Source: a virus. From it: a stretch of 64,000 nt of DNA. The number at the start of each line of letters is the position of its first letter. Position 1 is the stretch's first letter. The notes under the pieces are model-generated. The model had not been told where the DNA came from. It did no database searches and saw only the letters and a list, made by a program, of their open reading frames with translations. Where the stretch lies: IMG/VR virus record IMGVR_UViG_3300026078_000018. One strand, given 5' to 3'. Below, one piece after another: positions 2,376 through 47,977 of this stretch. The position numbers and the translations under genes were made by a program.

Positions 2376-2776
2376 GAGGCGGAGTCCTTCCTTGCGGGCG
2401 TCGCCCGCGTGATGTCGGTGCAGCTGCTGGCCCAGCGCAGTCCGAGGCGCTGCCACAGGCAGCGTCTGGGCTCGGGGAACTCCGGGGCGATACGGCGGCC
2501 GCACAGGGGGCAGGAGAGCCGGGCCAGCAGCAGTGAGGCGATGGTGTCGGCTGCAAGCTCGGGGGTGGTGCAGTAGCAGGTGGTGATGCGCTCACCGGTG
2601 AGGATGGCGAAGCCGTACCAGTTGGCGTTTTCACTGCTGGTGTTCTCGCGCATCCAGCCGATGCCGTAGCCGCGGCCCCCGGCCATCTCCAGCAGCGGTT
2701 TGACTGCGCAGAGCGCGGCCGCCTCTTCATCGGTGACCGGGCGGCCCAGGCGTGTCTCGACCGGGTCGAGGTTCAT
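2372..2776 (-). CDS. hypothetical Cys-containing protein
   Basis: MNLDPVET..., CPLC plus further Cys; AGGAGG RBS. Confidence 0.65.
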   Translation of the reverse strand: MNLDPVETRLGRPVTDEEAAALCAVKPLLEMAGGRGYGIGWMRENTSSENANWYGFAILTGERITTCYCTTPELAADTIASLLLARLSCPLCGRRIAPEFPEPRRCLWQRLGLRWASSCTDITRATPARKDSAS

Positions 2777-3336
2777 AGTGTCCGCCTCCTGGTGATCTCC
2801 AGCTCCTCGTGGACGATTGCGCAGGCGGTGTCGAAGACCTCGGGGAACGTCCAGGTGTGTGTGTCGATCCAGTGAGGGGTGAAGGTGGCGGGGACGTCCT
2901 CCCAGGACCCGGAGGTGGATCGGATCTTGGCTCCCATCCGGATGCTCCATAGCGGCACCGGTTTGTGTTTGATGATGACGACCGCGACGGTTCGGGCCGG
3001 GTCCGGCACCTGGTCCAGTGCATCTCGGAACCGCACGAAAAACGCGTAGGGCAGCATGCGGCTGCCGGGGGGCAGCGGTACCGGGTTGGGGTTGGGGTTT
3101 TCGATCAGCCCGTACCGGATGGCGATGGCCACCAGGTGACAGCGGTTGCGTGCATACAGCAGGTGACGCAGCTTCTGTTCTTCGATCTTGATCTTTTCTA
3201 CGCGCATGCCGAACTTCTCGGCGATGTTCTTGTCGTGCTCGCCGCGGCTGATCTCGATCAGGATCTTGTGCTGGATGGGGCTGATGACGGGCAGCGCAGC
3301 GGCGACAACGGCGATCTTTTCATCGCTGACGATCAT
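2773..3336 (-). CDS. LuxR-type HTH protein with extra C-terminal domain
   Basis: ISPIQHKILIEISRGEHDKNIAEKFG...KLRHLLYARNRCHLVAIAIRYGLI follows the LuxR HTH pattern; GGAGG RBS. Confidence 0.75.
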   Translation of the reverse strand: MIVSDEKIAVVAAALPVISPIQHKILIEISRGEHDKNIAEKFGMRVEKIKIEEQKLRHLLYARNRCHLVAIAIRYGLIENPNPNPVPLPPGSRMLPYAFFVRFRDALDQVPDPARTVAVVIIKHKPVPLWSIRMGAKIRSTSGSWEDVPATFTPHWIDTHTWTFPEVFDTACAIVHEELEITRRRTL

Positions 3337-3395
3337 CGTTCACCTCCCGCAGAACGCAGGCCGCCGATGTGGTACTGGGACAGGTTTCTTACCCC

Positions 3396-3424
3396 ACCAT
3401 ACCATCGGACCATACTATGGTCCA
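3396..3424 (-). promoter_or_regulatory. sigma70-type promoter overlapping a 21-bp palindromic operator
   Basis: Minus strand TGGACC-N17-TATGGT; operator ACCATAG-N7-CGATGGT. Confidence 0.7.
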
Positions 3425-3723
3425 TCACCTTTTTGTCGCGCGCAAGGCCCAGTGGGGCCGTGACCGGGCATGATACGAGGCTGTGCATCATCAACACGGG
3501 TGCTCCCGTGGGCAAGGCGCGCGTCAGCGCGCAAGGTCGCGTGGCTCCCGGGCACGCCCGGGGTGTTCGAGGGTGTCGGCTGCGGAACCACACGCTGGCG
3601 TGCGCGGGAACCGGGGCTTCGAGACCTAGAGCCTAGACCTTCTGCCCCGCGCTGGTCACAGGATCCTGTGACGCACACTCGCGAACACGAGTTCGGGATA
3701 ACCCGATGCAGAAAAGTTACCCC

Positions 3724-3749
3724 ACCATAGTGTCACTCGATGGTAGGGT
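3724..3749 (+). promoter_or_regulatory. operator-promoter upstream of the sigma gene
   Basis: ACCATAG-TGTCACT-CGATGGT overlapping -10 TAGGGT. Confidence 0.65.
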
Positions 3750-3882
3750 TCTGATGGGGATATTCTTCCCCGCACACACACCCCCGCAAGTCCGCGCGCC
3801 GCAACCAGCGGCGAGAGCGGCGAGACGGGGTTTCGCACCACCAAGCCACGCGACCTGGTTCCCACACGAAGGACACGCCGCC

Positions 3883-4524
3883 ATGCCCGCGATGCCGCGT
3901 ACCCAGAAACAGCCACGAATCCCCGCCCAGAGGCACCCCGAAAACAAGCCCCTGATCCCGCCGGAAGACGCCCAGAGACTGATCGCTGCTGCCCAAGACG
4001 GCGACCGGGAGGCCTTCGGCGAGCTCTACCGCGTCTACCGTGACAGGGTCTTCCGGTACATCTACTACCGCGTGTCCACCCGGGCCCTGGCCGAGGACCT
4101 CACCAGCGAAACCTTCATCCGGGCGCTGCGCCACATCACCACCTTCTCCTGGCAGGGCTGCGATTTCGTGGCATGGCTGTTCACCATCAGCCGCAACCTG
4201 GTGGCCGACTACTTCAAGTCCTCCCGGCACCGCATGGAGGTCTCCACCGGCGAGATGCTCGACTCCGACGAGGTCGAGGCCTCCCCGGAGGAGTCGGTGC
4301 TGGAGCACCTGTCCAACGAGGCCCTGCTGAACGCCGTCCACCGGCTCACCGACGGGCAGCGGGAGTGCATAAAGCTCCGGTTCCTGGAGCAGCTCACCGT
4401 GGCTGAGACGGCACGCGTCATGGACCTGTCCGAAGGCGCCGTCAAAACCCTCCAGTACCGCGCCGTCAGAACCCTGGGACGTGCCCTGAAAAAGGACGAC
4501 TTCGACATGGCCCTGGCCGCCTGA
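3883..4524 (+). CDS. bldN: ECF sigma factor, sigma-BldN/AdsA homologue
   Basis: RYIYYRV..AEDLTSETF.RALR.I.TF.WQG.DF.AWL.TI.RNLVAD.FKSSR.R.EV.TGEMLD and KTLQYRAVRTL match my recollection of Streptomyces BldN; start chosen from a GAAGGA RBS, an upstream start is possible. Confidence 0.85.
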   Translation: MPAMPRTQKQPRIPAQRHPENKPLIPPEDAQRLIAAAQDGDREAFGELYRVYRDRVFRYIYYRVSTRALAEDLTSETFIRALRHITTFSWQGCDFVAWLFTISRNLVADYFKSSRHRMEVSTGEMLDSDEVEASPEESVLEHLSNEALLNAVHRLTDGQRECIKLRFLEQLTVAETARVMDLSEGAVKTLQYRAVRTLGRALKKDDFDMALAA

Positions 4525-4555
4525 TCGCCCCGTTCGCGTTAGGAGGTAACCCTCT

Positions 4556-5077
4556 ATGAAGCCGATCTGCTTCTTGGACGTTGACGGGGTGCTCAACGTC
4601 TTCGATGCCGCCGCCGACTGGGATGACGAACACCACTACGAGAAGAACCTGGTTTTCCGGAATCCCCGCAACAACGACCGGTGGACCCAGCGCCAGGTCG
4701 TCCTCGACCGGCGTCACCCGGCGCTGCTGGGGATGCTCGCCGCCGACTTCGAGATGGTGTGGGCGACTGCCTGGCGCGAGGCCGCCAACGCGGCCCTGTC
4801 CGAGCTGCTGGGACTGCCTCAGCTCCCCGTGGTCACCTTCCGCCACAGCGGCGGCGTCGGAGGCCTGCACTGGAAGACTCCGCGGCTGGCCGACTGGGCC
4901 GAGGGCCGCCCCTTCGTCTGGCTCGACGACGAAGCCCGCAGCGACGACGCCGCGTGGTTGAGAAACGTCAACCCCGACGTCGCGGTGCTGCGGTGCGACC
5001 CGGTCTACGGCCTCACCGACAAGCACATCCTGGACGCCTTGGACTTCGCCGCGTCTCTGGCAGGATCCAAGACGTGA
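4556..5077 (+). CDS. HAD-family hydrolase (Swiss-army-knife RNA-repair HAD type)
   Basis: FLDVDGVLN, WATAW, WK, FVWLDD motifs; AGGAGG RBS. Confidence 0.8.
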   Translation: MKPICFLDVDGVLNVFDAAADWDDEHHYEKNLVFRNPRNNDRWTQRQVVLDRRHPALLGMLAADFEMVWATAWREAANAALSELLGLPQLPVVTFRHSGGVGGLHWKTPRLADWAEGRPFVWLDDEARSDDAAWLRNVNPDVAVLRCDPVYGLTDKHILDALDFAASLAGSKT

Positions 5078-5373
5078 CCGACGATTCGATACCCCAGCTG
5101 TCCCTGGTCTCCTACCGGGGCCACGCGCTGCAGCGTGGCGAAGGCGGCGAGTGGACGTGTTTCTGCGGTGAGCTGACACTGGCGTCCTGCGTCGAAGACC
5201 CGAAAGCCTTCAGCGCGTTTTACGAGCATGCCCGTGACGCCGAGTGGATGATCTGGAACTCCGAAGAGCGGCGTTACGTCAGCGAGAGCGAAATCCGTGA
5301 GGCTGTCGAGACGCTGATGCCGCTGCCAGACACCCGGTTCCGACTGCCGCGCGAGTTCCTCGACTACCTGTGA
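5074..5373 (+). CDS. hypothetical protein
   Basis: GTGA coupling; H..CFCG..H possible metal site. Confidence 0.6.
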   Translation: MTDDSIPQLSLVSYRGHALQRGEGGEWTCFCGELTLASCVEDPKAFSAFYEHARDAEWMIWNSEERRYVSESEIREAVETLMPLPDTRFRLPREFLDYL

Positions 5374-5374
5374 C

Positions 5375-5932
5375 TCACGCACACCTCCAGCGGCCCACGA
5401 CGTAGAACGCCTGTGGGCCGCCGGAGGATGCGGCGAACCGGACCGAGATCAACCCCGTTGTGCCGTCATGATCAAGGGTGAAATACGACGGCATCGCGTC
5501 GGAGGGGTCGACGTGCACCCCGGGATACCAAACCCCGTCCACGGCCAGCGACGACCAGCCGCTCGGGCTGACAGCACCGGCGGTGGGGTGCGTACCCAGA
5601 GGAGCTGTCGACTGGGCATCCACCCCGAAAGCCAGCACCACCGCGTGCCCGTCAGCGGCCCCGGCAACCCGGGCCGCCCAATGCGGCACCCGCTCGGCAT
5701 CAGTCCACTCCCAGCAGCCTGTGACCGCATCCCTCGGCCCGAGAGCCGTCGGTGCGGCATCCGAAACACCCCGCGCGCCGGTGGCCACGCTCAGATGCAG
5801 CAGAGAGGAACCGTTTAGCGTCACATCCTGCACCGGCACCGCGGAGCTGTCCTGCACGGCCTGGACAGCCCCCGCGGAAGAGCAGGCACTCACTGTGAGC
5901 ACTACCACCCCGAGCATCGCTGACAGCCTCAT
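5375..5932 (-). CDS. putative lipoprotein
   Basis: MRLSAMLGVVVLTVSA-C lipobox; GAGGAGG RBS. Confidence 0.65.
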   Translation of the reverse strand: MRLSAMLGVVVLTVSACSSAGAVQAVQDSSAVPVQDVTLNGSSLLHLSVATGARGVSDAAPTALGPRDAVTGCWEWTDAERVPHWAARVAGAADGHAVVLAFGVDAQSTAPLGTHPTAGAVSPSGWSSLAVDGVWYPGVHVDPSDAMPSYFTLDHDGTTGLISVRFAASSGGPQAFYVVGRWRCA

Positions 5933-6464
5933 CCGCCCCTCCTCAACCGGCATGGCACCGTATATCAGGAGTATGCGGTACCCCGGTCCGGGAAGGGAAA
6001 CGTGGGTGTCCCGGCTTACCGGTGACCATGCACCGATGTGCGGGATGATGAGAGCAGACGGCGCGCGCCACACGCCGGATCCGGTGTGAACCCCCTGGTG
6101 GCATCGGGGTCCGGGGCGCGCGCCGTCTGCGGAAGGCGCGGAGTCAGCTGGGGAAGTGCTGACCGTCGCGTGACCGCGCCTTGTGGTGGATCATTCAATT
6201 GGCTTCAACAAAGAGGTGGACGTTAGAAAGTATCAGTGCTTTGCGTCACGGTGAGTTCACTGAGCGTAACCATGGCGTTCGGCGTCGCAGGATGCCCACG
6301 TCGGGCAGCTGTTCACTCTTGGCGCCTCCATTTCTGGAGGCGAATGATGTTCATCGTGCTACCTATCCATGTATAGCGCAATCCCCATACGGGGGTGGCG
6401 TGGGTGTGGCTTTTAAGCCAGAACAGGACTTCCGCAGGACTTCGAATATGCGTGACTATTCCGG

Positions 6465-7358
6465 ATGGGGGATGATGTGACAGTGAGTTTCGAGTCGTTC
6501 GCGATCAAGCGTGACCTCGGTGCGTCGTTGAAGGCTGCACGGCTGGCTATGAAACCGACACTGTCGACGACGCGCGCAGCGGCCGCCCTCGGGATCAGCC
6601 AGGCCTCGGTGTCACGGATCGAGAACGGGAAGCAGCTCGTCAACAAGGATCAGCTGTGCCAGATGGCCAACGTCTACAAGGTGAGGACCGGCCAGCTGTC
6701 GCAGTGGCTCCGGATGCTGACCCAGGTGAACGCTCCCGACCAGTGGTGGCACGAGGAGCCCTACCGGAAGTGTTTGACCAAGCGGTACGCCGAGCTCATC
6801 GGGGTTGAGGATGCAGCTGAAGCACTGATGCTGCTGCAGCTCCAGGTGGTTCCTGGACTGCTACAGACGGCGGAGTACACCAGGGCTCTCCTGGAGGGAA
6901 GCCCGATCAGGTTGAGCGCAGAGGAGATCGACTCTCTGATCGAGGTCCGGCAGGTCAGACAGCAACGGCTCAGCTTGGACGCTGTACGCCCGCTGCAGGC
7001 GACGTTCATCCTGTCTCAAGCCGTCCTCGAAATGCGCTACAGCAGCGAGGAGGTTCACCGGGCGCAGATGCGGCAGCTCGACCTCAGGGCCAAGCAGGAC
7101 AACATCACGATCGTAATCCTTCCTTTCGATCGAATGATCGATCTAAATTCAGTGGATTTGTACGACTTGCCCGGTGGCGCAGACCCCGTTGTGTTCACCG
7201 AGCCGTTGATGACGAGTCAGATGGTGCAGACTATCGATGACGTCGAAAAGGTCAGAGGCATCATGTTGAAAGCTCAACAGCGTGCTCTTTCACCTGCTCA
7301 ATCGCAAACAGCTATTAGACAAAGAATGGATGGATCACATTATGCTCGACAGCAATGA
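6465..7358 (+). CDS. XRE-family HTH regulator with DUF5753 domain (Scr1-like)
   Basis: LGASLKAAR...ISQASVSRIENG; VVPGLLQTAEY; R..RQ..L. Confidence 0.9.
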   Translation: MGDDVTVSFESFAIKRDLGASLKAARLAMKPTLSTTRAAAALGISQASVSRIENGKQLVNKDQLCQMANVYKVRTGQLSQWLRMLTQVNAPDQWWHEEPYRKCLTKRYAELIGVEDAAEALMLLQLQVVPGLLQTAEYTRALLEGSPIRLSAEEIDSLIEVRQVRQQRLSLDAVRPLQATFILSQAVLEMRYSSEEVHRAQMRQLDLRAKQDNITIVILPFDRMIDLNSVDLYDLPGGADPVVFTEPLMTSQMVQTIDDVEKVRGIMLKAQQRALSPAQSQTAIRQRMDGSHYARQQ

Positions 7359-7560
7359 CACCTCCTCCGGACAGCTGAAGTGGCGCACGTCCTCATACAG
7401 CCAAGGTCAAAACAACTGCGTCGAGGTGGCTTTCAGCGCCCCCGGCGAAGAGGTGTGGGTGCGCCACAGCAAGAACCCCGACGGCGGGGTTCTGCAGTTC
7501 ACCTCGGACGAGTGGAAAGCGTTCATCGCGGGCGCCCGTGACGGCGAGTTCGGGGCGTAG
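7342..7560 (+). CDS. DUF397 protein (Scr2-like)
   Basis: WRTSSYS..NNCVEVA...VRHSKNP...L.F...EW.AF. Confidence 0.9.
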   Translation: MLDSNDTSSGQLKWRTSSYSQGQNNCVEVAFSAPGEEVWVRHSKNPDGGVLQFTSDEWKAFIAGARDGEFGA

Positions 7561-7598
7561 CTAAGGATCTTCTCCGGGCGGTCATCAGCTCGTCACGA

Positions 7599-7641
7599 CA
7601 CCTCAGGACCCCTCCTTCCGAACAAGAGGGGGCCTGAGGTG
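7599..7641. terminator. stem-loop after the DUF397 gene
   Basis: CACCTCAGG...CCTGAGGTG with inner CCCCTC/GAGGGG. Confidence 0.55.
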
Positions 7642-7882
7642 CTCTGATGTAAGCAGCCTGTTTGCTATACCCAGATTGGCCAGGTGCACGCTACAGTGTC
7701 GGACCTGGGATGTTCGGTGTTCGCAGGTGAACGGCCCTCGCTGATCTCGCGCAAACCCGTGCGCGGGCGGCCGCCGGGCCCCGCGGATCGGCCTTCCCGA
7801 TTCAGCCACGCGATCAGCACCCCGCTTCTGGAGAGCGCCATGCCCCGATGCATTCTGCCCATCCCTCCGACACCGCCGTACC

Positions 7883-8533
7883 GTGTCTGAGACCGCCGGG
7901 ATCCCGGTGGTGGCCGCCCCGGTCCGCGCCCACGCCGTGTGCTTCACCGGCGACAACCTCAACGAGGTCCGAGCTGTCGTCTCATCGTGTCTTCACGGCT
8001 CACCCGAACCGCCGGACGGCTTCGGATTTGCTGTCGGATGGCCCGAGACCAGTAACCCGGCTGCCATCAAACTGTGGGATCCTCGCAGCGAACGCTGGGC
8101 GTATGCAATGCCCGGCGACTGGATCATCGTCGTCGATGGCGTGCTGGTGCTGAACCAGTGGTGGTTCCGGACTCTGTTCAACGGCCACGCGGCCGCCCCC
8201 GACCGGCTGTCGCAGGCTGCCGAACTCGCGGCACAGCTGCAGCAGCTGCTGGCCGTCCAGGAGGAACCGGCGCCGCCCCGGGATCCGCTGTCGCCGGTCA
8301 ACCTGGTGCAGGTGCCCCCGCATCACACCGTGCCGCCGATGCCGATCCCTGTGGTCGGCGATGTCTGGCGGGACGAGTCTGGCAAGACCTGGACCGTGCG
8401 GCGCGTCCCGGAGCAGTGGTGGGAGGCGGAGTGTGTGGACGGTGACGGCTACCAGTGGACGTGGCAGATGCTGCACAGGCACTACTCGCCGCTGGTGCTG
8501 GATCACCGCACCTCGGTCTTCACCGCCGCATAG
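7883..8533 (+). CDS. hypothetical phage protein
   Basis: AVCFTGDN..EV...AMPGDWII pattern common in phage hypotheticals. Confidence 0.65.
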   Translation: MSETAGIPVVAAPVRAHAVCFTGDNLNEVRAVVSSCLHGSPEPPDGFGFAVGWPETSNPAAIKLWDPRSERWAYAMPGDWIIVVDGVLVLNQWWFRTLFNGHAAAPDRLSQAAELAAQLQQLLAVQEEPAPPRDPLSPVNLVQVPPHHTVPPMPIPVVGDVWRDESGKTWTVRRVPEQWWEAECVDGDGYQWTWQMLHRHYSPLVLDHRTSVFTAA

Positions 8534-8619
8534 CTTCTCTACTGGTTTCATACACCAGTAAAAGACTATAGTGGTGTGTGAGGCGGGTCGTCCGTGCCCG
8601 CCCGGACGGAGGCCACACC

Positions 8620-8931
8620 ATGCAGCACCCGGACCTGAAGCAGATCCGCCGCTGGATCGACGGCGAGGACCCGGCCCCGGCGTTGAACGAGCTCTACAGG
8701 ATCGGCGAGGAGATCGGCAGGCGCCGCAAGGCCCTGCGCAAGCAGGCCGACGACGAGGGCAAGCGGATGAAGGCCATGGTGGAGCTGCTGTGGCGGCAGG
8801 GCATGGACAACCTGGCCGAGATCCAGCGGGTACTAGACGTCACCTACACCACCGTCGACAAGGAACTCACCGCCAAGGGGCTGGGGCCGCAGCGGCGCCC
8901 GAAGCGCGGAGAGACGACAACCGGCGACTGA
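8620..8931 (+). CDS. small HTH-like protein
   Basis: GGAGG RBS; LAEIQRVLDVTYTTV.KEL HTH-like; TATAGT upstream. Confidence 0.65.
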   Translation: MQHPDLKQIRRWIDGEDPAPALNELYRIGEEIGRRRKALRKQADDEGKRMKAMVELLWRQGMDNLAEIQRVLDVTYTTVDKELTAKGLGPQRRPKRGETTTGD

Positions 8932-12808: not shown

Positions 12809-12991
12809 ATGCCCTACACCGCCACCGTCACCCAAAACAACGTCCTCATGCCCGACGGCAACCTGCACCAGACCGGCGACAAGGTACTGCTGTCCGACGA
12901 GCAGTACGAACAGATGGGGCCCGCGGCGCGCACCGCAGTGCTGTCGGACGTGACTGCGATCGACACTGAGACGACGGTGCCGGAGCTCTGA
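12809..12991 (+). CDS. 60-aa protein, stand-alone paralogue of the tailspike N-terminus
   Basis: M.YTATVT.NNV..PDGNLHQ.GD..LL.D..Y.QMG shared with the ORF at 13782. Confidence 0.85.
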   Translation: MPYTATVTQNNVLMPDGNLHQTGDKVLLSDEQYEQMGPAARTAVLSDVTAIDTETTVPEL

Positions 12992-13781: not shown

Positions 13782-15638
13782 ATGTCCTACACGGCCACCG
13801 TCACCGTCAACAACGTCGTTCTGCCGGACGGCAACCTGCACCAGGCAGGCGACTCGATCCTGCTCACCGACTCCGAGTACGCGCAGATGGGCTCGGCGCT
13901 GATCGCCGCGGTGCTATCGGGCGTAACCCCGGCCGGGGGCTCGCCAGTCGTCTACCCCAACACGGCCGGGATCGGGCAGGTCCCGGTCGGCGTCACCTCC
14001 ACCTCTGTGGCCTACGAATCTGTGATCAACGCAGGTCCGTGGGTGCACGACGTCCGCATGCACGGCGCCGTCGGCGACGGCCAGGTGACCATCGACGGCA
14101 CCACCACCGTCGGCAGCAACGTCATCACCTGTGCGTCGGGGCCCTTCCATCCCTCCGACGTCGGCAAGGCGATCCAAATCAAGGGTGCGCTCACCTCCGG
14201 CGCCACCACGCTGTGCACGACCATCACCGGGTACACCTCGGCGACGCAGGTGACGGTCGGCGCCAATGCCACAGCTGCCGTATCCGGTACCGCGCTGGTG
14301 ATGTGGGCCACCGACGACACCGCGGCGATCCAGGCCTGTATCAACGCGGCTTTCGCTTACGGCCAGGTCCACGGGGTCGGCATCATCTCCATTCCGCCGG
14401 GCGCCGGGCTCTTCTACGGCATCGCGGGCCCTCTGGTCGCCGGGGGCGCGACGGCCGCGAACGGCCAGCTGGTCATCCCCGTTCAGGCGGACACCGGCCT
14501 CAAGGTCGAGCTGATCTTCCTGGGGGTCACCGACGGCGGCACCACCCGGCACTGGCATCAGAAGATGCCGCAGATGTCCGGGTCCACGTTGGTCAGCTTC
14601 GGGGTTTTCGCCACCGCTACCGCCCAGACCGACTCGCTGACAGCCAGCGGTAACCCGGCGGTCATCTCTGGCCAGACCGGCGCCTACGGCTACGGCGGCA
14701 CCTCCCTGCTGTACAGCAACATCCTGGTCCGGCTCCAGAACCTGCAGATCTACAGCCCCCACTCGCTGAACGGCTGGACGTACGACGCGCTGAACTTTCA
14801 CGGGATTTCTGCCTGCGCGCTGGAGAACTTCGGCTACGGCACCACCGGGCTGTACAGCGCCGGGGACTTCTCCAACCCCAACGGCTTCTCTGCCGGGCTG
14901 TCCGTCGGCGTCATCCTGCCCTCGGCAGGCAACAACGACAACAACACATTGAGAAACGTGATCTGCCACGGCGGCTACACCCGCGGCATCTACCTCACCG
15001 AGCACACCGACTGGATCGGCGGAGTGGTCCTGTACTGCTGGTCCGGCATGGGTCTGATTGGCAACTACGACGACGGCGGAAGCGGCCACGGCAACCCCGG
15101 CGTCGGCGCCAGCCACGGCATCAACTTCACCCAGATCTCGATCGAGGGCTGCAACCAGGACCTGGAGGTCATCGGCGTCGGGCAGGCCGGTATCGGGCCA
15201 ATGGTCTCTGGCTACTTCGACACCGAGGGCGCCAGCGAGGTCCGCGGCCAGGCCGACGCTCTGGCCGCCGCCTGCGGCGAAGTTCACCTCAAGGGCAACG
15301 GCGGCACGCCGCCGGTGATCGACAACCCCACCAACTTGGCGATCGTCTGCGATTTCGAGTTCCCCGGCCCGGTCGCCAGCCCACCCGCAATCCCCATCAA
15401 CAACGCGCTCATGAACCCCTACGGCCGGTACGCGAATATCACTCTGACCGGCGGCACCGGCATCACATCCGTCCAGGTCAGCGGCATGATGGGCGGCGCG
15501 ACCGCGCCTTCACTGGGCAACTCGTACAGCCAGACTGCAGGCGTGCTGGCCGCGCCGGTCACAGTCCGGGTCGGACCGCAGGGCTGGATCAAGGTCAACG
15601 GCACCACAGCACCGACCGCCACCTGGGTGCTGGACTGA
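13782..15638 (+). CDS. beta-helix spike/fibre (pectate-lyase-3-like)
   Basis: DVRMHGAVGDG...DDTAAIQACINA...I.IP.G followed by beta-helix-like repeats. Confidence 0.8.
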   Translation: MSYTATVTVNNVVLPDGNLHQAGDSILLTDSEYAQMGSALIAAVLSGVTPAGGSPVVYPNTAGIGQVPVGVTSTSVAYESVINAGPWVHDVRMHGAVGDGQVTIDGTTTVGSNVITCASGPFHPSDVGKAIQIKGALTSGATTLCTTITGYTSATQVTVGANATAAVSGTALVMWATDDTAAIQACINAAFAYGQVHGVGIISIPPGAGLFYGIAGPLVAGGATAANGQLVIPVQADTGLKVELIFLGVTDGGTTRHWHQKMPQMSGSTLVSFGVFATATAQTDSLTASGNPAVISGQTGAYGYGGTSLLYSNILVRLQNLQIYSPHSLNGWTYDALNFHGISACALENFGYGTTGLYSAGDFSNPNGFSAGLSVGVILPSAGNNDNNTLRNVICHGGYTRGIYLTEHTDWIGGVVLYCWSGMGLIGNYDDGGSGHGNPGVGASHGINFTQISIEGCNQDLEVIGVGQAGIGPMVSGYFDTEGASEVRGQADALAAACGEVHLKGNGGTPPVIDNPTNLAIVCDFEFPGPVASPPAIPINNALMNPYGRYANITLTGGTGITSVQVSGMMGGATAPSLGNSYSQTAGVLAAPVTVRVGPQGWIKVNGTTAPTATWVLD

Positions 15639-36836: not shown

Positions 36837-36877
36837 CGAGACGCCGGTATATACCGTTGGTATATACCGGCGTCTCG
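36837..36877. repeat. perfect inverted repeat (19-bp arms) carrying two GGTATATACC boxes
   Basis: CGAGACGCCGGTATATACC-GTT-GGTATATACCGGCGTCTCG. Confidence 0.9.
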
Positions 36878-44732: not shown

Positions 44733-44768
44733 GGTATATACCTATGGCATATACCATCCGCGTATACC
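44733..44768. promoter_or_regulatory. three 10-bp boxes at 13-bp period (parS-like)
   Basis: GGTATATACC, GGCATATACC, CGCGTATACC. Confidence 0.7.
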
Positions 44769-45298: not shown

Positions 45299-46111
45299 CT
45301 ACAGCACCGTCAACAACGCCTGCGTCGCCGACGTGCATCCACGCATCGCGTCCCGCGCTTCGTCGGTCAACGCCCGAAGCGGCGACCCCACCGGCAGCCG
45401 CACCATCGTCCACCGCTGGCCCGCCGGATCCGGCAGCACGGCCGCCGGGCGCCCGCTGGCCACCTGCACCTTCAGCTGGTCCAAGACGGGGTCGAGGTAC
45501 GTCTCGGTGAGCAGGTGCGCTTTCGACTCGGGGACGAAGGCCTTGTCGATCGTCAGGAAGGCGCGGACGACTCTGCGGATGAACTCGCTGCGATCCAGAC
45601 CGCAGTCGTCTGCGTCGGCGTCGAACCGAACGCGCTGACTTTCGGTCATGTACGGGCTCAGCATCGTGCGGTGCGCGGACTCGGTGACGACCTCGTCGTA
45701 GATGTCGTCGATGACCGTCGTCGCCAACGGCGTGCTGGGGAGGTCCGCGGCGACGAGCCGGTATTCCCTGGCCGCGGTCATATAGACCTGAGCAAGCGTC
45801 AAGCCGCCGAGAGCAGGCTGCGCCAGTGCGATCAACGGGAGGAGATCCCGATCCATCAGCACCGCGGTGCGCTGCTTCTTGCCCCCTGCGGAGGGGGCAG
45901 CCTTCGCAGGGGGCTTCGGCTTGGGCTTGGGCGCCTTGGCTGCCTGCTGTGACGGGACAGCAGGCTCCGGCGGCTCGGGCTCAGAGGGCGCCGCCGGGGG
46001 AGGTGGGGGCGTCTGTGGCGGGTCTGGGGGCTTGCTGGCAACGGCTGCGCTCGGCGTCCCCATCGCCAGCATCGCGGCGACGGCGTCGCTGACGTCGTTA
46101 GAGTGGCTCAC
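45299..46111 (-). CDS. ParA partner, RHH-type centromere-binding protein
   Basis: Disordered Pro-rich N-terminus; SPYMT......FDADADDCGLDRSEFIRRVV RHH pattern; coupled to parA. Confidence 0.6.
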   Translation of the reverse strand: MSHSNDVSDAVAAMLAMGTPSAAVASKPPDPPQTPPPPPAAPSEPEPPEPAVPSQQAAKAPKPKPKPPAKAAPSAGGKKQRTAVLMDRDLLPLIALAQPALGGLTLAQVYMTAAREYRLVAADLPSTPLATTVIDDIYDEVVTESAHRTMLSPYMTESQRVRFDADADDCGLDRSEFIRRVVRAFLTIDKAFVPESKAHLLTETYLDPVLDQLKVQVASGRPAAVLPDPAGQRWTMVRLPVGSPLRALTDEARDAMRGCTSATQALLTVL

Positions 46112-47151
46112 GCCGTGTTCCTTGCTGCGATTGCGGCGTTCATCCCGGCCAGGGTCTCCCGGGCGAACTCGTCGTAGTCACGCAGGATTGCGTGCTCCTC
46201 CAGCAGTTCCTCGTCGGTTGTACCCAGGGAAGTACTCCTGAGGTACTCGCCGATCGTCACGCCCTTCTCGCGAGCCTTGGCCACGTTGAGCGCCGAGTAG
46301 TGGATCATCGCGTTGAACAGCTTCGGGTAGCCGGGCAGCAGCGCGCGCTCCGAGTCGAACACCTCGTTGTCCAGTATCACTTGGATCTTCTTGGCGATGT
46401 CGACCATCGCCCCTCCGGGCCGGGCGTTGCCGTTGCCGTCCGTCCTGCGCCACGCACGGATCGTGGGGTCGGGAATGCGACCGGCCACGGCGCCGAGGAA
46501 GACGTGCTCGGGATTGCGCTCGCGCGCCTCACCGATCTCCTTGATCAGGATGTTCAGACCGTCCTCGTAGGCCGCGATGTCGTAGTCCATTGGGGCGTAG
46601 GAGAACGCCGCCGCCTCCAGCACCATGAGACGAACGGTCTTGATCTTCGGGTCGTTGTCCACCAGCGTCATGTGGTAGTCGCCGGAGACGGTCGCGATCA
46701 CCTGTCCCAGAACGTGGGTGTAGGGGCGCTTCTGCAGGACCGAGACCGCGCTCATCCCGTCGATGGCGGCTTCCAGCGCGGTGCCGCCGACGATCACGTC
46801 CACCCGGCCCCCGTTGGGGTAGGACCGCACCCCCTTCACGACGGTGGGGGCCGTCGGCGTCCCAGTCATGAACGTCACCATCAGCGCGTCGGCCAGGGAC
46901 TTGCCCTTGTCATCGTGTTCGGTCTCGTGCAGCCCCAGGTCGCGCCTGCTGGCGATGGCGTGGCTGTCGACGTCGACCACCAGGATGACGAAGCCCATAC
47001 GGGCCAGGGCGTCGGCCAGCGCGGTGATGGTCGCGGTCTTTAGGATGCCACCCTTGCCGGTGACCACGGCGAGGACGCGCGCCAGCAGGGCGCGCTCGGT
47101 CAGCGAGATCCGTGGCGGGGCGTCGGCGGCTTCGAAAGCTGCTGTGGTCAT
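46108..47151 (-). CDS. parA: ParA-family partition ATPase
   Basis: VLAVVTGKGGILKT, LVVDVDSH, LVDNDP. Confidence 0.85.
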   Translation of the reverse strand: MTTAAFEAADAPPRISLTERALLARVLAVVTGKGGILKTATITALADALARMGFVILVVDVDSHAIASRRDLGLHETEHDDKGKSLADALMVTFMTGTPTAPTVVKGVRSYPNGGRVDVIVGGTALEAAIDGMSAVSVLQKRPYTHVLGQVIATVSGDYHMTLVDNDPKIKTVRLMVLEAAAFSYAPMDYDIAAYEDGLNILIKEIGEARERNPEHVFLGAVAGRIPDPTIRAWRRTDGNGNARPGGAMVDIAKKIQVILDNEVFDSERALLPGYPKLFNAMIHYSALNVAKAREKGVTIGEYLRSTSLGTTDEELLEEHAILRDYDEFARETLAGMNAAIAARNTA

Positions 47152-47198
47152 GCGGTTCTCCCTTGCTGGCGGGTCATGGGGGGATGCAGGGCGCTGAG

Positions 47199-47221
47199 GG
47201 CGTATACCGGTGGCATATACC
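47199..47221. promoter_or_regulatory. two 10-bp boxes at 13-bp period upstream of parA
   Basis: GGCGTATACC, GGCATATACC. Confidence 0.7.
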
Positions 47222-47257
47222 TGCGGCGCGTGCCACAGCATAGCGTTTCTGGTACTC

Positions 47258-47313
47258 AAAACACGCGTTTTGAAGAGTAAAAATGGCCGTTTTCGATGTC
47301 GAAAACACGCGTT
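47258..47313. repeat. 12-bp direct repeat AAAACACGCGTT x2
   Basis: At 47258-47269 and 47302-47313. Confidence 0.7.
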
Positions 47314-47560
47314 GGTGCTTGACCGTGCATGCGGCCCATCGATAGCGTGACGGTGCCACGCCTCGGGGACGGCCGTACCGAGCGCGCGACGGCACCCACA
47401 ACGCCCCTCGACCCGGGGGAGGCGACACCGGTTCCGCGAGCGTACCGGCTGCCCACCACCTGCGCTGCAACCTGCACCGAATCCACCCTCGGTGTCTGCG
47501 GCGTCCAGTCGGACCCTGAAGCGTTGCTGACGTGCCACGCGACTAGGACAGGGGACACCC

Positions 47561-47977
47561 ATGATCGAGTTCTACGACGGTCCGGTCCAGACCGCCCCCA
47601 CCACCACCACGGCTACCACCATGACGGTGGTCCCCATCACTACTCAAGCCACTGCGACCCCCATTGTCCCTGCTGCGCATCTGATCAAGCCCGACGAGCA
47701 GTGGACCCCCGAGGATCTGCGCGACTACATCCTCACCGAGATCGTCAAGCGTCAACCCGCCGCCGCGAGCCGTCGTAACCCGGCCGCCGAGATGGCCATC
47801 TGCCGCGCTTTCAGCGAGCGCCACGGCGTCAACGCCCCCCGCATCGCGCGCTACGCCTTCACCATCGCCCAGGGCTGGTGGAACTCCAGCCCCATCGACT
47901 TCCGGCGCTTCTCCAAGGCCTCCGACACCTACTTCGCCAACATCATCATCGGGCGTCTGCCTCAGGCCAGCGCGTGA
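47561..47977 (+). CDS. replication-operon protein (possible initiator)
   Basis: First gene before DnaC/DnaB. Confidence 0.7.
   Translation: MIEFYDGPVQTAPTTTTATTMTVVPITTQATATPIVPAAHLIKPDEQWTPEDLRDYILTEIVKRQPAAASRRNPAAEMAICRAFSERHGVNAPRIARYAFTIAQGWWNSSPIDFRRFSKASDTYFANIIIGRLPQASA

Follow-up and report, generated by a model that had tools for sequence, protein, structure and literature searches.

A gene encoding a BldN-family ECF sigma factor is carried on the plus strand, at positions 3883–4524, of a 64,000 nt stretch of phage DNA (the window, i.e. the whole stretch analysed here), and its reading frame, Pfam domains, match to the NCBIfam family TIGR02952, sequence identity and position in phylogenetic trees confirmed this assignment, the match being far beyond chance. 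As judged by comparison with its relatives, the gene was captured by phages from an actinomycete of the Catenulispora lineage, is derived from the host developmental sigma factor BldN, and is kept by the phages under what appears to be purifying yet relaxed selection. BldN stands near the top of the cascade leading to aerial hyphae and sporulation in actinomycetes; among its targets are the chaplin, rodlin, bldM and rsbN promoters, and the formation of aerial hyphae depends on it. In the reading to which we assign an even chance, the phage protein would act as a deregulated BldN on the host BldN regulon, since its DNA-recognition helices have been preserved and the readable phage genes lack BldN-type promoters in front of them.

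The longest ORF in this frame opens at 3706 and would encode 272 amino acids. This start was ruled out, as 1–2 nt indels further upstream break the longer frame in related phages, and an ATG at 3883, the sequence AAGGA eight bases ahead of it and the N-terminus MP(A/T)MPR are common to four relatives; the gene is therefore taken to be the 213-amino-acid form, running from this ATG to the stop codon at 4522–4524. The sequence-only reading had proposed a phage-encoded homologue of BldN on the strength of three motifs, all of which (TFSWQGCDFVAWL, FKSSRHRMEVSTGEMLD and KTLQYRAVRTL) were found in the protein and aligned with host BldN. Pfam analysis detected Sigma70_r2 at residues 48–115 and Sigma70_r4_2 at residues 146–198, i.e. 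the two-domain ECF architecture of sigma2 and sigma4 without sigma3. The TIGR02952 ‘BldN family’ model scored 211.3 bits, marginally above its cut-off of 206.45, with the second-best family at 103 bits; the host protein scored 231 and the sister phage copies 187–211, several of them (187–205 bits) lying under the cut-off. The top solved structure, both by sequence and by fold, was Streptomyces venezuelae BldN (6DXO chain A, from the RsbN–BldN complex), to which the phage protein is 54% identical. An AlphaFold (AF2) model with a mean pLDDT of 73 showed two helical domains joined by a floppy linker and matched the fold of ECF sigma factors. The family score, the 6DXO match and the nesting of the gene in the host BldN clade described below thus uphold the proposed homology.

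The anatomy of the protein could be laid out along the gene, all on the plus strand. A short phage-type N-terminus of 32 amino acids (MPAMPRTQKQ..., 3883–3978), delimited by alignment and of low pLDDT in residues 1–20, is followed by the sigma2 domain (residues 33–116, 3979–4230), whose helix 1 comprises residues 33–46, and by the sigma4 domain (residues 140–205, 4300–4497), whose recognition helix KTLQYRAVRTL is identical to that of the hosts. The protein ends in a phage-specific C-terminal tail, KKDDFDMALAA (4489–4521), a candidate ClpXP degron. It shares family, fold and domain order with cellular sigma-BldN (ECF121), which occurs in Streptomyces and other sporulating actinomycetes.

The window belongs to a ∼153 kb myovirus-like phage from a rhizosphere metagenome. 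It encodes structural proteins (tail sheath, baseplate wedge, minor tail and virion proteins), a large terminase and a replication set made up of two helicases, DnaC- and DnaB-like proteins, a primase, SSB, an exonuclease and a 1224-amino-acid DnaE-type polymerase, the last only ∼30% identical to its counterparts in large mycobacteriophages. No nucleotide match to known phages was obtained when 20 kb of the window were compared with 50,697 phage records. Read depth in the same sample was ∼5× for host-type bldN contigs and ∼29× for the phage.

The sigma gene was found in the same setting on five contigs of one phage lineage, one of them of 104 kb, from several public samples. In the order common to these, leftward genes and a gap of ∼0.5 kb are followed by the sigma gene (215–218 amino acids), a HAD_SAK_2 gene, an Xre-HTH/DUF5753 gene accompanied by a DUF397 gene, and structural genes. 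A sixth copy (L107:8001–8561) lies in a 39 kb temperate phage of unrelated type, L107, which encodes an integrase as well as both a small and a large terminase; its product is 74% identical to Catenulispora BldN and carries the phage-type residues D41 and R53. L107 is one of eight provirus-like contigs in IMG/VR, apart from the five of this lineage, that encode BldN-like sigmas 41–66% identical to that of the window, BldN being the best family for all eight, although all score under its cut-off. In L107 and in L108–L114 (IMG/VR), the BldN-like sigmas sit in integrase-bearing proviruses. Temperate elements of actinobacteria may carry BldN-derived sigmas recurrently. None of the 50,697 catalogued phages encoded a BldN-like sigma, the best phage sigma among them being 29–33% identical, and a phage BldN was not described in the literature searched.

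A candidate seventh phage copy, the protein P0002 encoded by the Logan contig L104 (L104:1–2290), was rejected as the contig is chimeric. Its first ∼960 nt, covering the control region and the 5′-terminal half of the sigma gene, are 100% identical to the phage L003; beyond them come a host-type bldN and then the host rsbN-like gene, with the changeover where phage and host DNA are 95–97% identical. Either L104 arose as an artefact of assembly or it is a genuine phage–host recombinant. A break within the sigma gene, at 4253/4300, is also present in the source assembly of the window.

The closest cellular relatives among 5.8 billion proteins were Catenulispora BldN proteins, with 78–80% amino acid identity over the sigma2–sigma4 core. 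DNA identity to Catenulispora bldN, measured in 60 nt windows, was 83–97% in sigma2 and 60–80% in sigma4 and fell to background outside the core. The relationship to host bldN is confined to the mature part of the gene. In a maximum-likelihood tree, the phage copies fell within a clade with Catenulispora BldN (support 100/87), outside which lay BldN of Actinospica, Streptacidiphilus, Kitasatospora and Streptomyces. A second tree placed L107 and the five other copies in one phage clade (95/92) nested in the Catenulisporaceae BldN (100/99), a grouping that is less than certain, as the single phage clade could owe something to long-branch attraction. The phylogeny that the sequence-only reading had called for hence sets the gene inside the host BldN clade and not among unrelated ECF groups, and both the trees and the protein identities require its host lineage to be corrected from Streptomyces to Catenulispora. 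Synonymous divergence between phage and host copies (dS 0.28–0.48) was similar to that among Catenulispora species (0.25–0.42), which places the capture within the radiation of the Catenulispora genus-level lineage.

Since then, the phage protein has evolved 10–20 times faster than its cellular counterparts, with dN/dS ratios of 0.42–0.73 between phages versus 0.02–0.05 between hosts; by domain, the phage ratio was 0.34–0.42 in sigma2, >1 in the linker and 0.33–0.66 in sigma4. Ratios so far above the host value, and exceeding 1 in the linker, point to relaxed constraint or a shifted function. Such rates, and the several copies scoring at 187–205 bits, might also be those of a passenger without phage function that arrived by illegitimate recombination and is slowly decaying, but we regard this as very improbable, as the frames are intact in all six phage copies at a dS of ∼0.3, dN/dS stays below 1 in both domains, and the new N-terminus, the derived residues S41D and C53R and the fixed position beside the HAD gene have been kept in at least five phages from several samples.

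The phage copies differ from host BldN at both ends. In Streptomyces, the N-terminal extension of BldN is a pro-sequence that must be cleaved to yield the mature sigma. The alignment showed ∼80–110 residues ahead of sigma2 in hosts and only 30–40 in the phage copies, in which no cleaved pro-sequence was thus recognizable. At the C-terminus, where host BldN reads LLPAE(S/A)L and never carries the phage tail, four of the six phage copies have an added (A/D)DFD-x-(M/A/L)ALAA, absent from the other two. The tail is disordered in the AF2 model. Among the 47 window proteins, no other has LAA as its last residues; in Catenulispora sp. GAS73, the tmRNA tag closes with GLAA. By analogy, the ...ALAA tail resembles an SsrA/ClpXP degron and is a candidate for one. 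A parallel is offered by sigma-AntA, an orphan Streptomyces ECF sigma whose C-terminal Ala-Ala is required for degradation by ClpXP (PMC7142297). Both are ECF sigmas with no cognate anti-sigma gene and a C-terminal Ala-Ala, although sigma-AntA belongs to another ECF subfamily and serves antimycin biosynthesis, and the phage tail, missing from two of six copies, is only a candidate degron.

No anti-sigma gene adjoins the phage sigma gene, as had been noticed from the letters alone. In its place a HAD gene follows directly, again as claimed: a HAD_SAK_2 phosphatase gene (PF18143; 4556–5077, plus strand) with DVDG and DDE motifs, which throughout the lineage lies directly 3′ of the sigma gene. 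A tblastn search of the 64 kb window with the host RsbN-like protein detected no RsbN-like gene (best E = 5.2). Catenulispora itself has an RsbN orthologue beside bldN, encoded ∼265 bp downstream, a 399-amino-acid DUF5667 protein with a transmembrane segment near residue 115. It is very divergent, giving no sequence match, and its N-terminal helix keeps A11, F14 and L18, which are contact residues in S. venezuelae RsbN. Unlike the cellular genes, the phage gene thus has neither pro-region nor adjacent rsbN nor host synteny, and both known post-translational controls of cellular BldN appear to have been stripped from the phage copies.

Altogether, 17 of 170 core positions differ from the hosts in at least four of five phage copies, and the derived features shared by the phages include, apart from the N-terminus, S41D and C53R. 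The phage-specific changes cluster in helix 1 of sigma2, which lines the RsbN groove and in which six of 14 residues are phage-specific changes (P = 0.0007). The RsbN contacts themselves, mapped from the Streptomyces structure onto Catenulispora with its very divergent RsbN, are mostly kept: four of 18 contact positions are phage-changed (E11-equivalent S to D, A12 to M/R, S23-equivalent C to R, and V133 to I), as a set not significantly enriched (P = 0.087), whereas 14 are unchanged or conservative. The changes A12 to M/R and S23 to R are phage-specific, and the large hydrophobic contacts are all retained (F15, Y19, F48, L52, L118/119, F137, L138, Q161, Y162 and V165). An escape of the phage sigma from RsbN, which the sequence-only reading had suggested, is no more than a possibility.

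The same residues bear on a different role, that of a decoy or dominant-negative protein which would soak up RsbN or compete for core polymerase and so derail or block host development. The spread of phages in S. venezuelae is contained by development that depends on bldN, and plaques on a bldN mutant are larger and do not shrink (PMC10117723), so that a block of the pathway would pay. Retention of every hydrophobic RsbN contact and concentration of the changes in the helix lining the RsbN groove would suit such a protein, and the LAA tail could, speculatively, deliver a bound partner to ClpXP. Titration of RsbN, however, would free host BldN and push development rather than block it, and a pure decoy would have no need of the DNA- and core-binding determinants that are under purifying selection here (sigma2 dN/dS 0.34–0.42); we consider this role clearly unlikely.

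A divergent control region of 546 bp (3337–3882) separates the sigma gene from the leftward gene and is conserved in four phages, with a mean column identity of 85% and a pairwise identity of 79%, compared with 72–81% for the flanking genes. It contains two operator-like elements. The perfect 8-1-8 palindrome GGACCATACTATGGTCC (3407–3423) occurs once in the window, where 0.05 occurrences are expected, and is conserved in relatives; the perfect 18 bp palindrome GTCACAGGATCCTGTGAC (3655–3672) likewise occurs once, with 0.02 expected, and is invariant in the four phages. The latter was considered as a BldD box and set aside, as its half-sites TCAC-N8-GTGA do not show the spacing expected of BldD boxes. 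A scan of 2700–8700 for sigma-70-type promoters detected none in the control region, and a structured 5′ leader found no support (RNAalifold covariation term +2.1; two of 58 pairs compensatory). Rfam hits and tRNAs were absent from the window. Of the ‘operator-promoter’ proposed from the letters, the operator part is hence borne out by the conserved 546 bp with their two palindromes, no promoter was demonstrable by scanning, and ‘operator-like’ is a fair description of the region.

One run of a rhizosphere metatranscriptome contained 6% of the sampled words of the stretch, and its coverage was confined to 3986–4398. The loose ends of the RNA contigs read like host bldN (VRQAQEGSAD and VTLRFLQGLS). 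The run thus represents host mRNA and is uninformative on phage gene expression, and its signal was rejected as a transcript of the phage sigma.

The promoters that BldN would be expected to recognize were defined from Catenulispora host DNA, the resulting motif resting on four sites. Ahead of the host rsbN-like gene, GCCGTAACC and TCGTTTTCC flank a variable 17 nt spacer in five Catenulispora sequences, a footprint of the form CGTAAC-N17-CGTT in which the hexamers are conserved. Similar sites precede three of the six chaplin genes of Catenulispora sp. GAS73, with CG(T/C)(T/A)AC or AAAAAC, a spacer of 16–17 nt and CGTT(G/A). Searching both strands of the window for BldN-type sites gave six loose matches where 7.1 were expected, and no canonical intergenic site. 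Control of the chaplin, rodlin, bldM and rsbN regulon by the phage sigma may accordingly be surmised from the unchanged recognition helix together with these host sites.

Phage-encoded sigmas usually time phage genes, and the protein could instead be a classical phage transcription factor that drives middle or late genes, possibly including its own operon, from drifted promoters. A near-match to the host-type promoter, GTTAC-N17-CGAT (3716–3741, plus strand; CGTAAC/CGTTAC-N16–17-CGTT in the hosts), lies within an ACCAT-N11-ATGGT inverted repeat ∼140 nt ahead of the sigma gene and is kept in four phages; the pattern is, however, no more frequent than chance in the 64 kb. The raised dN/dS and a change in the sigma2 specificity loop of the window copy would also accord with promoters that have drifted, as would the position of the related copy in the temperate phage, between an early region and the terminase genes. 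The loop reads SWQGCDFVAW (R to C and G to V) in the window copy, and in other ECF sigmas this loop reads the −10 base, as in sigma-E structures, so that the promoter preference of this copy may differ. The other phage copies keep the host-like SWQGRDFGAW, and the −35 recognition helix is that of the host throughout.

The phage DNA itself argues further against such a role. No BldN-type site was found before ∼47 window genes or in L001, L003 and L004 (∼40 kb of relatives), a de novo repeat search recovered no repeated bipartite or promoter-like motif among the intergenic regions of the window, yielding only the operator-like repeat GGTATATACC, and cognate promoters repeated before gene blocks, as a phage late-gene sigma should have, were not seen in the window or the three relatives. 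A second sigma gene was not present in the window. The promoter scan covered 64 of the 153 kb, and within these and the three relatives the lack of a canonical intergenic BldN-type site favours host promoters as targets. We therefore think a sigma dedicated to phage genes rather unlikely.

Relatives of the HAD gene were limited to proteins of 27–33% identity in JGI metagenomes, with none in IMG/VR. In Catenulispora sp. GAS73, a HAD-family hydrolase gene of PF12710 is located just upstream of bldN (L011:4548–5345); as its Pfam family differs from HAD_SAK_2, the pairing of a HAD gene upstream in the host and downstream in the phage is probably a coincidence. On the other side of the control region, a divergent gene (2773–3336, minus strand) encodes a 187-amino-acid protein, without a Pfam hit in the window copy, whose positional counterpart in the 104 kb relative has a GerE/LuxR HTH (PF00196), a link that is tentative. 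Further downstream are a WhiJ-like regulator gene with Xre HTH and DUF5753 (6465–7358, plus strand), a conserved neighbour in the same phages, and, paired with it, a gene for a small DUF397 (BldB-family) protein (PF04149; 7282–7560, plus strand), whose true start is probably an internal ATG, the product being 71–81 amino acids long in relatives. This pair is retained in all related phage contigs, and its cellular relatives are only ∼33% identical, which argues against a recent capture, in contrast to the sigma gene. Among the names that NCBI gives the family is ‘Scr1 family TA system antitoxin-like’.

Other features of the window were recorded alongside. The gene at 5375–6073 (minus strand) is convergent with the sigma–HAD pair, has a lipoprotein signal (MRLSAMLGVVVLTVSAC) and no family match; its product may be a surface or exclusion protein. 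A direct repeat of 146 nt with 76% identity (12809–12954 and 13782–13927) lies where two nearby genes begin, one encoding a 618-amino-acid pectin-lyase-like protein, and has the look of an N-terminal module that tail-fibre-type proteins share. The palindrome GGTATATACC, with six matches in the window where 0.27 are expected, occurs in intergenic tandem pairs at 36846–36868, 44733–44755 and 47212–47221, near replication and ParA genes, and these repeats are probably operators or iterons. Inside the replication module, 45299–47562 (minus strand) encodes a ParA-like P-loop ATPase of 483 amino acids and a partner, which makes it conceivable that this large phage can adopt a plasmid-like or carrier state.

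The reading we hold at even chance, a deregulated BldN acting on the host regulon, can be set out as follows. Of the host gene, only the mature sigma2–linker–sigma4 part was retained, without the pro-region, the host promoter and the adjacent rsbN, and the short new N-terminus and the ...ALAA tail were gained. The sigma would be expressed from the conserved control region of the phage, together with the HAD phosphatase, bind host core RNA polymerase and steer it to BldN-type promoters (CGTAAC-N16–17-CGTT) before the host rsbN and chaplin genes. The aerial-growth regulon could then be switched according to the schedule of the phage, without pro-protein processing and with RsbN control altered and possibly weakened, and the lifetime of the sigma would probably be limited by ClpXP via the LAA tail.

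Such an effect could either push or block development. The containment of plaques by bldN-dependent development in S. venezuelae makes interference at the BldN node plausible, and for the same reason a lytic phage would not obviously gain from activation of the regulon. A bolder version holds the protein to be a purpose-built ‘override’ sigma for aerial growth, active without processing, hardened against RsbN through helix 1 and timed by ClpXP, which would force or mistime development, for example to carry the phage genome into spores or to break the developmental barrier that contains plaques, and which would have spread between unrelated phage types; this is possible, but we lean against it.

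Precedents exist in other phages. Bacillus phages carry SigF/SigG-like sporulation sigmas that are thought to interfere with the programme of the host (Schwartz et al., 2022; PMC9429907), and outside Firmicutes phages the survey of that study saw no such homologues except for a few that were SigK-like. Like the gene described here, they are phage-borne homologues of a host sigma governing development or dormancy; they differ in being group 3 rather than ECF sigmas, in belonging to another host phylum, and in relating to endospores, not aerial hyphae. Actinophages are known to carry homologues of WhiB, ParB, FtsK and SsgA (PMC10117723), which are also regulators of host development or division, none of them being a sigma factor.

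A stripped-down viral BldN would be the first sign of actinophage intervention at the level of the bld sigma factors, and would parallel the sporulation sigmas that Bacillus phages carry, albeit in another phylum and another class of sigma. The gene also amounts to a natural experiment on BldN control, in which the sigma core stands without pro-region and anti-sigma, with a degron-like tail and with defined substitutions in the RsbN groove. The near-identical sigma2 DNA of phage and host, at which assemblies break or turn chimeric, offers a site for the study of phage–host recombination. If the phage sigma acts on the host, the virus may tamper with the development of Catenulispora.
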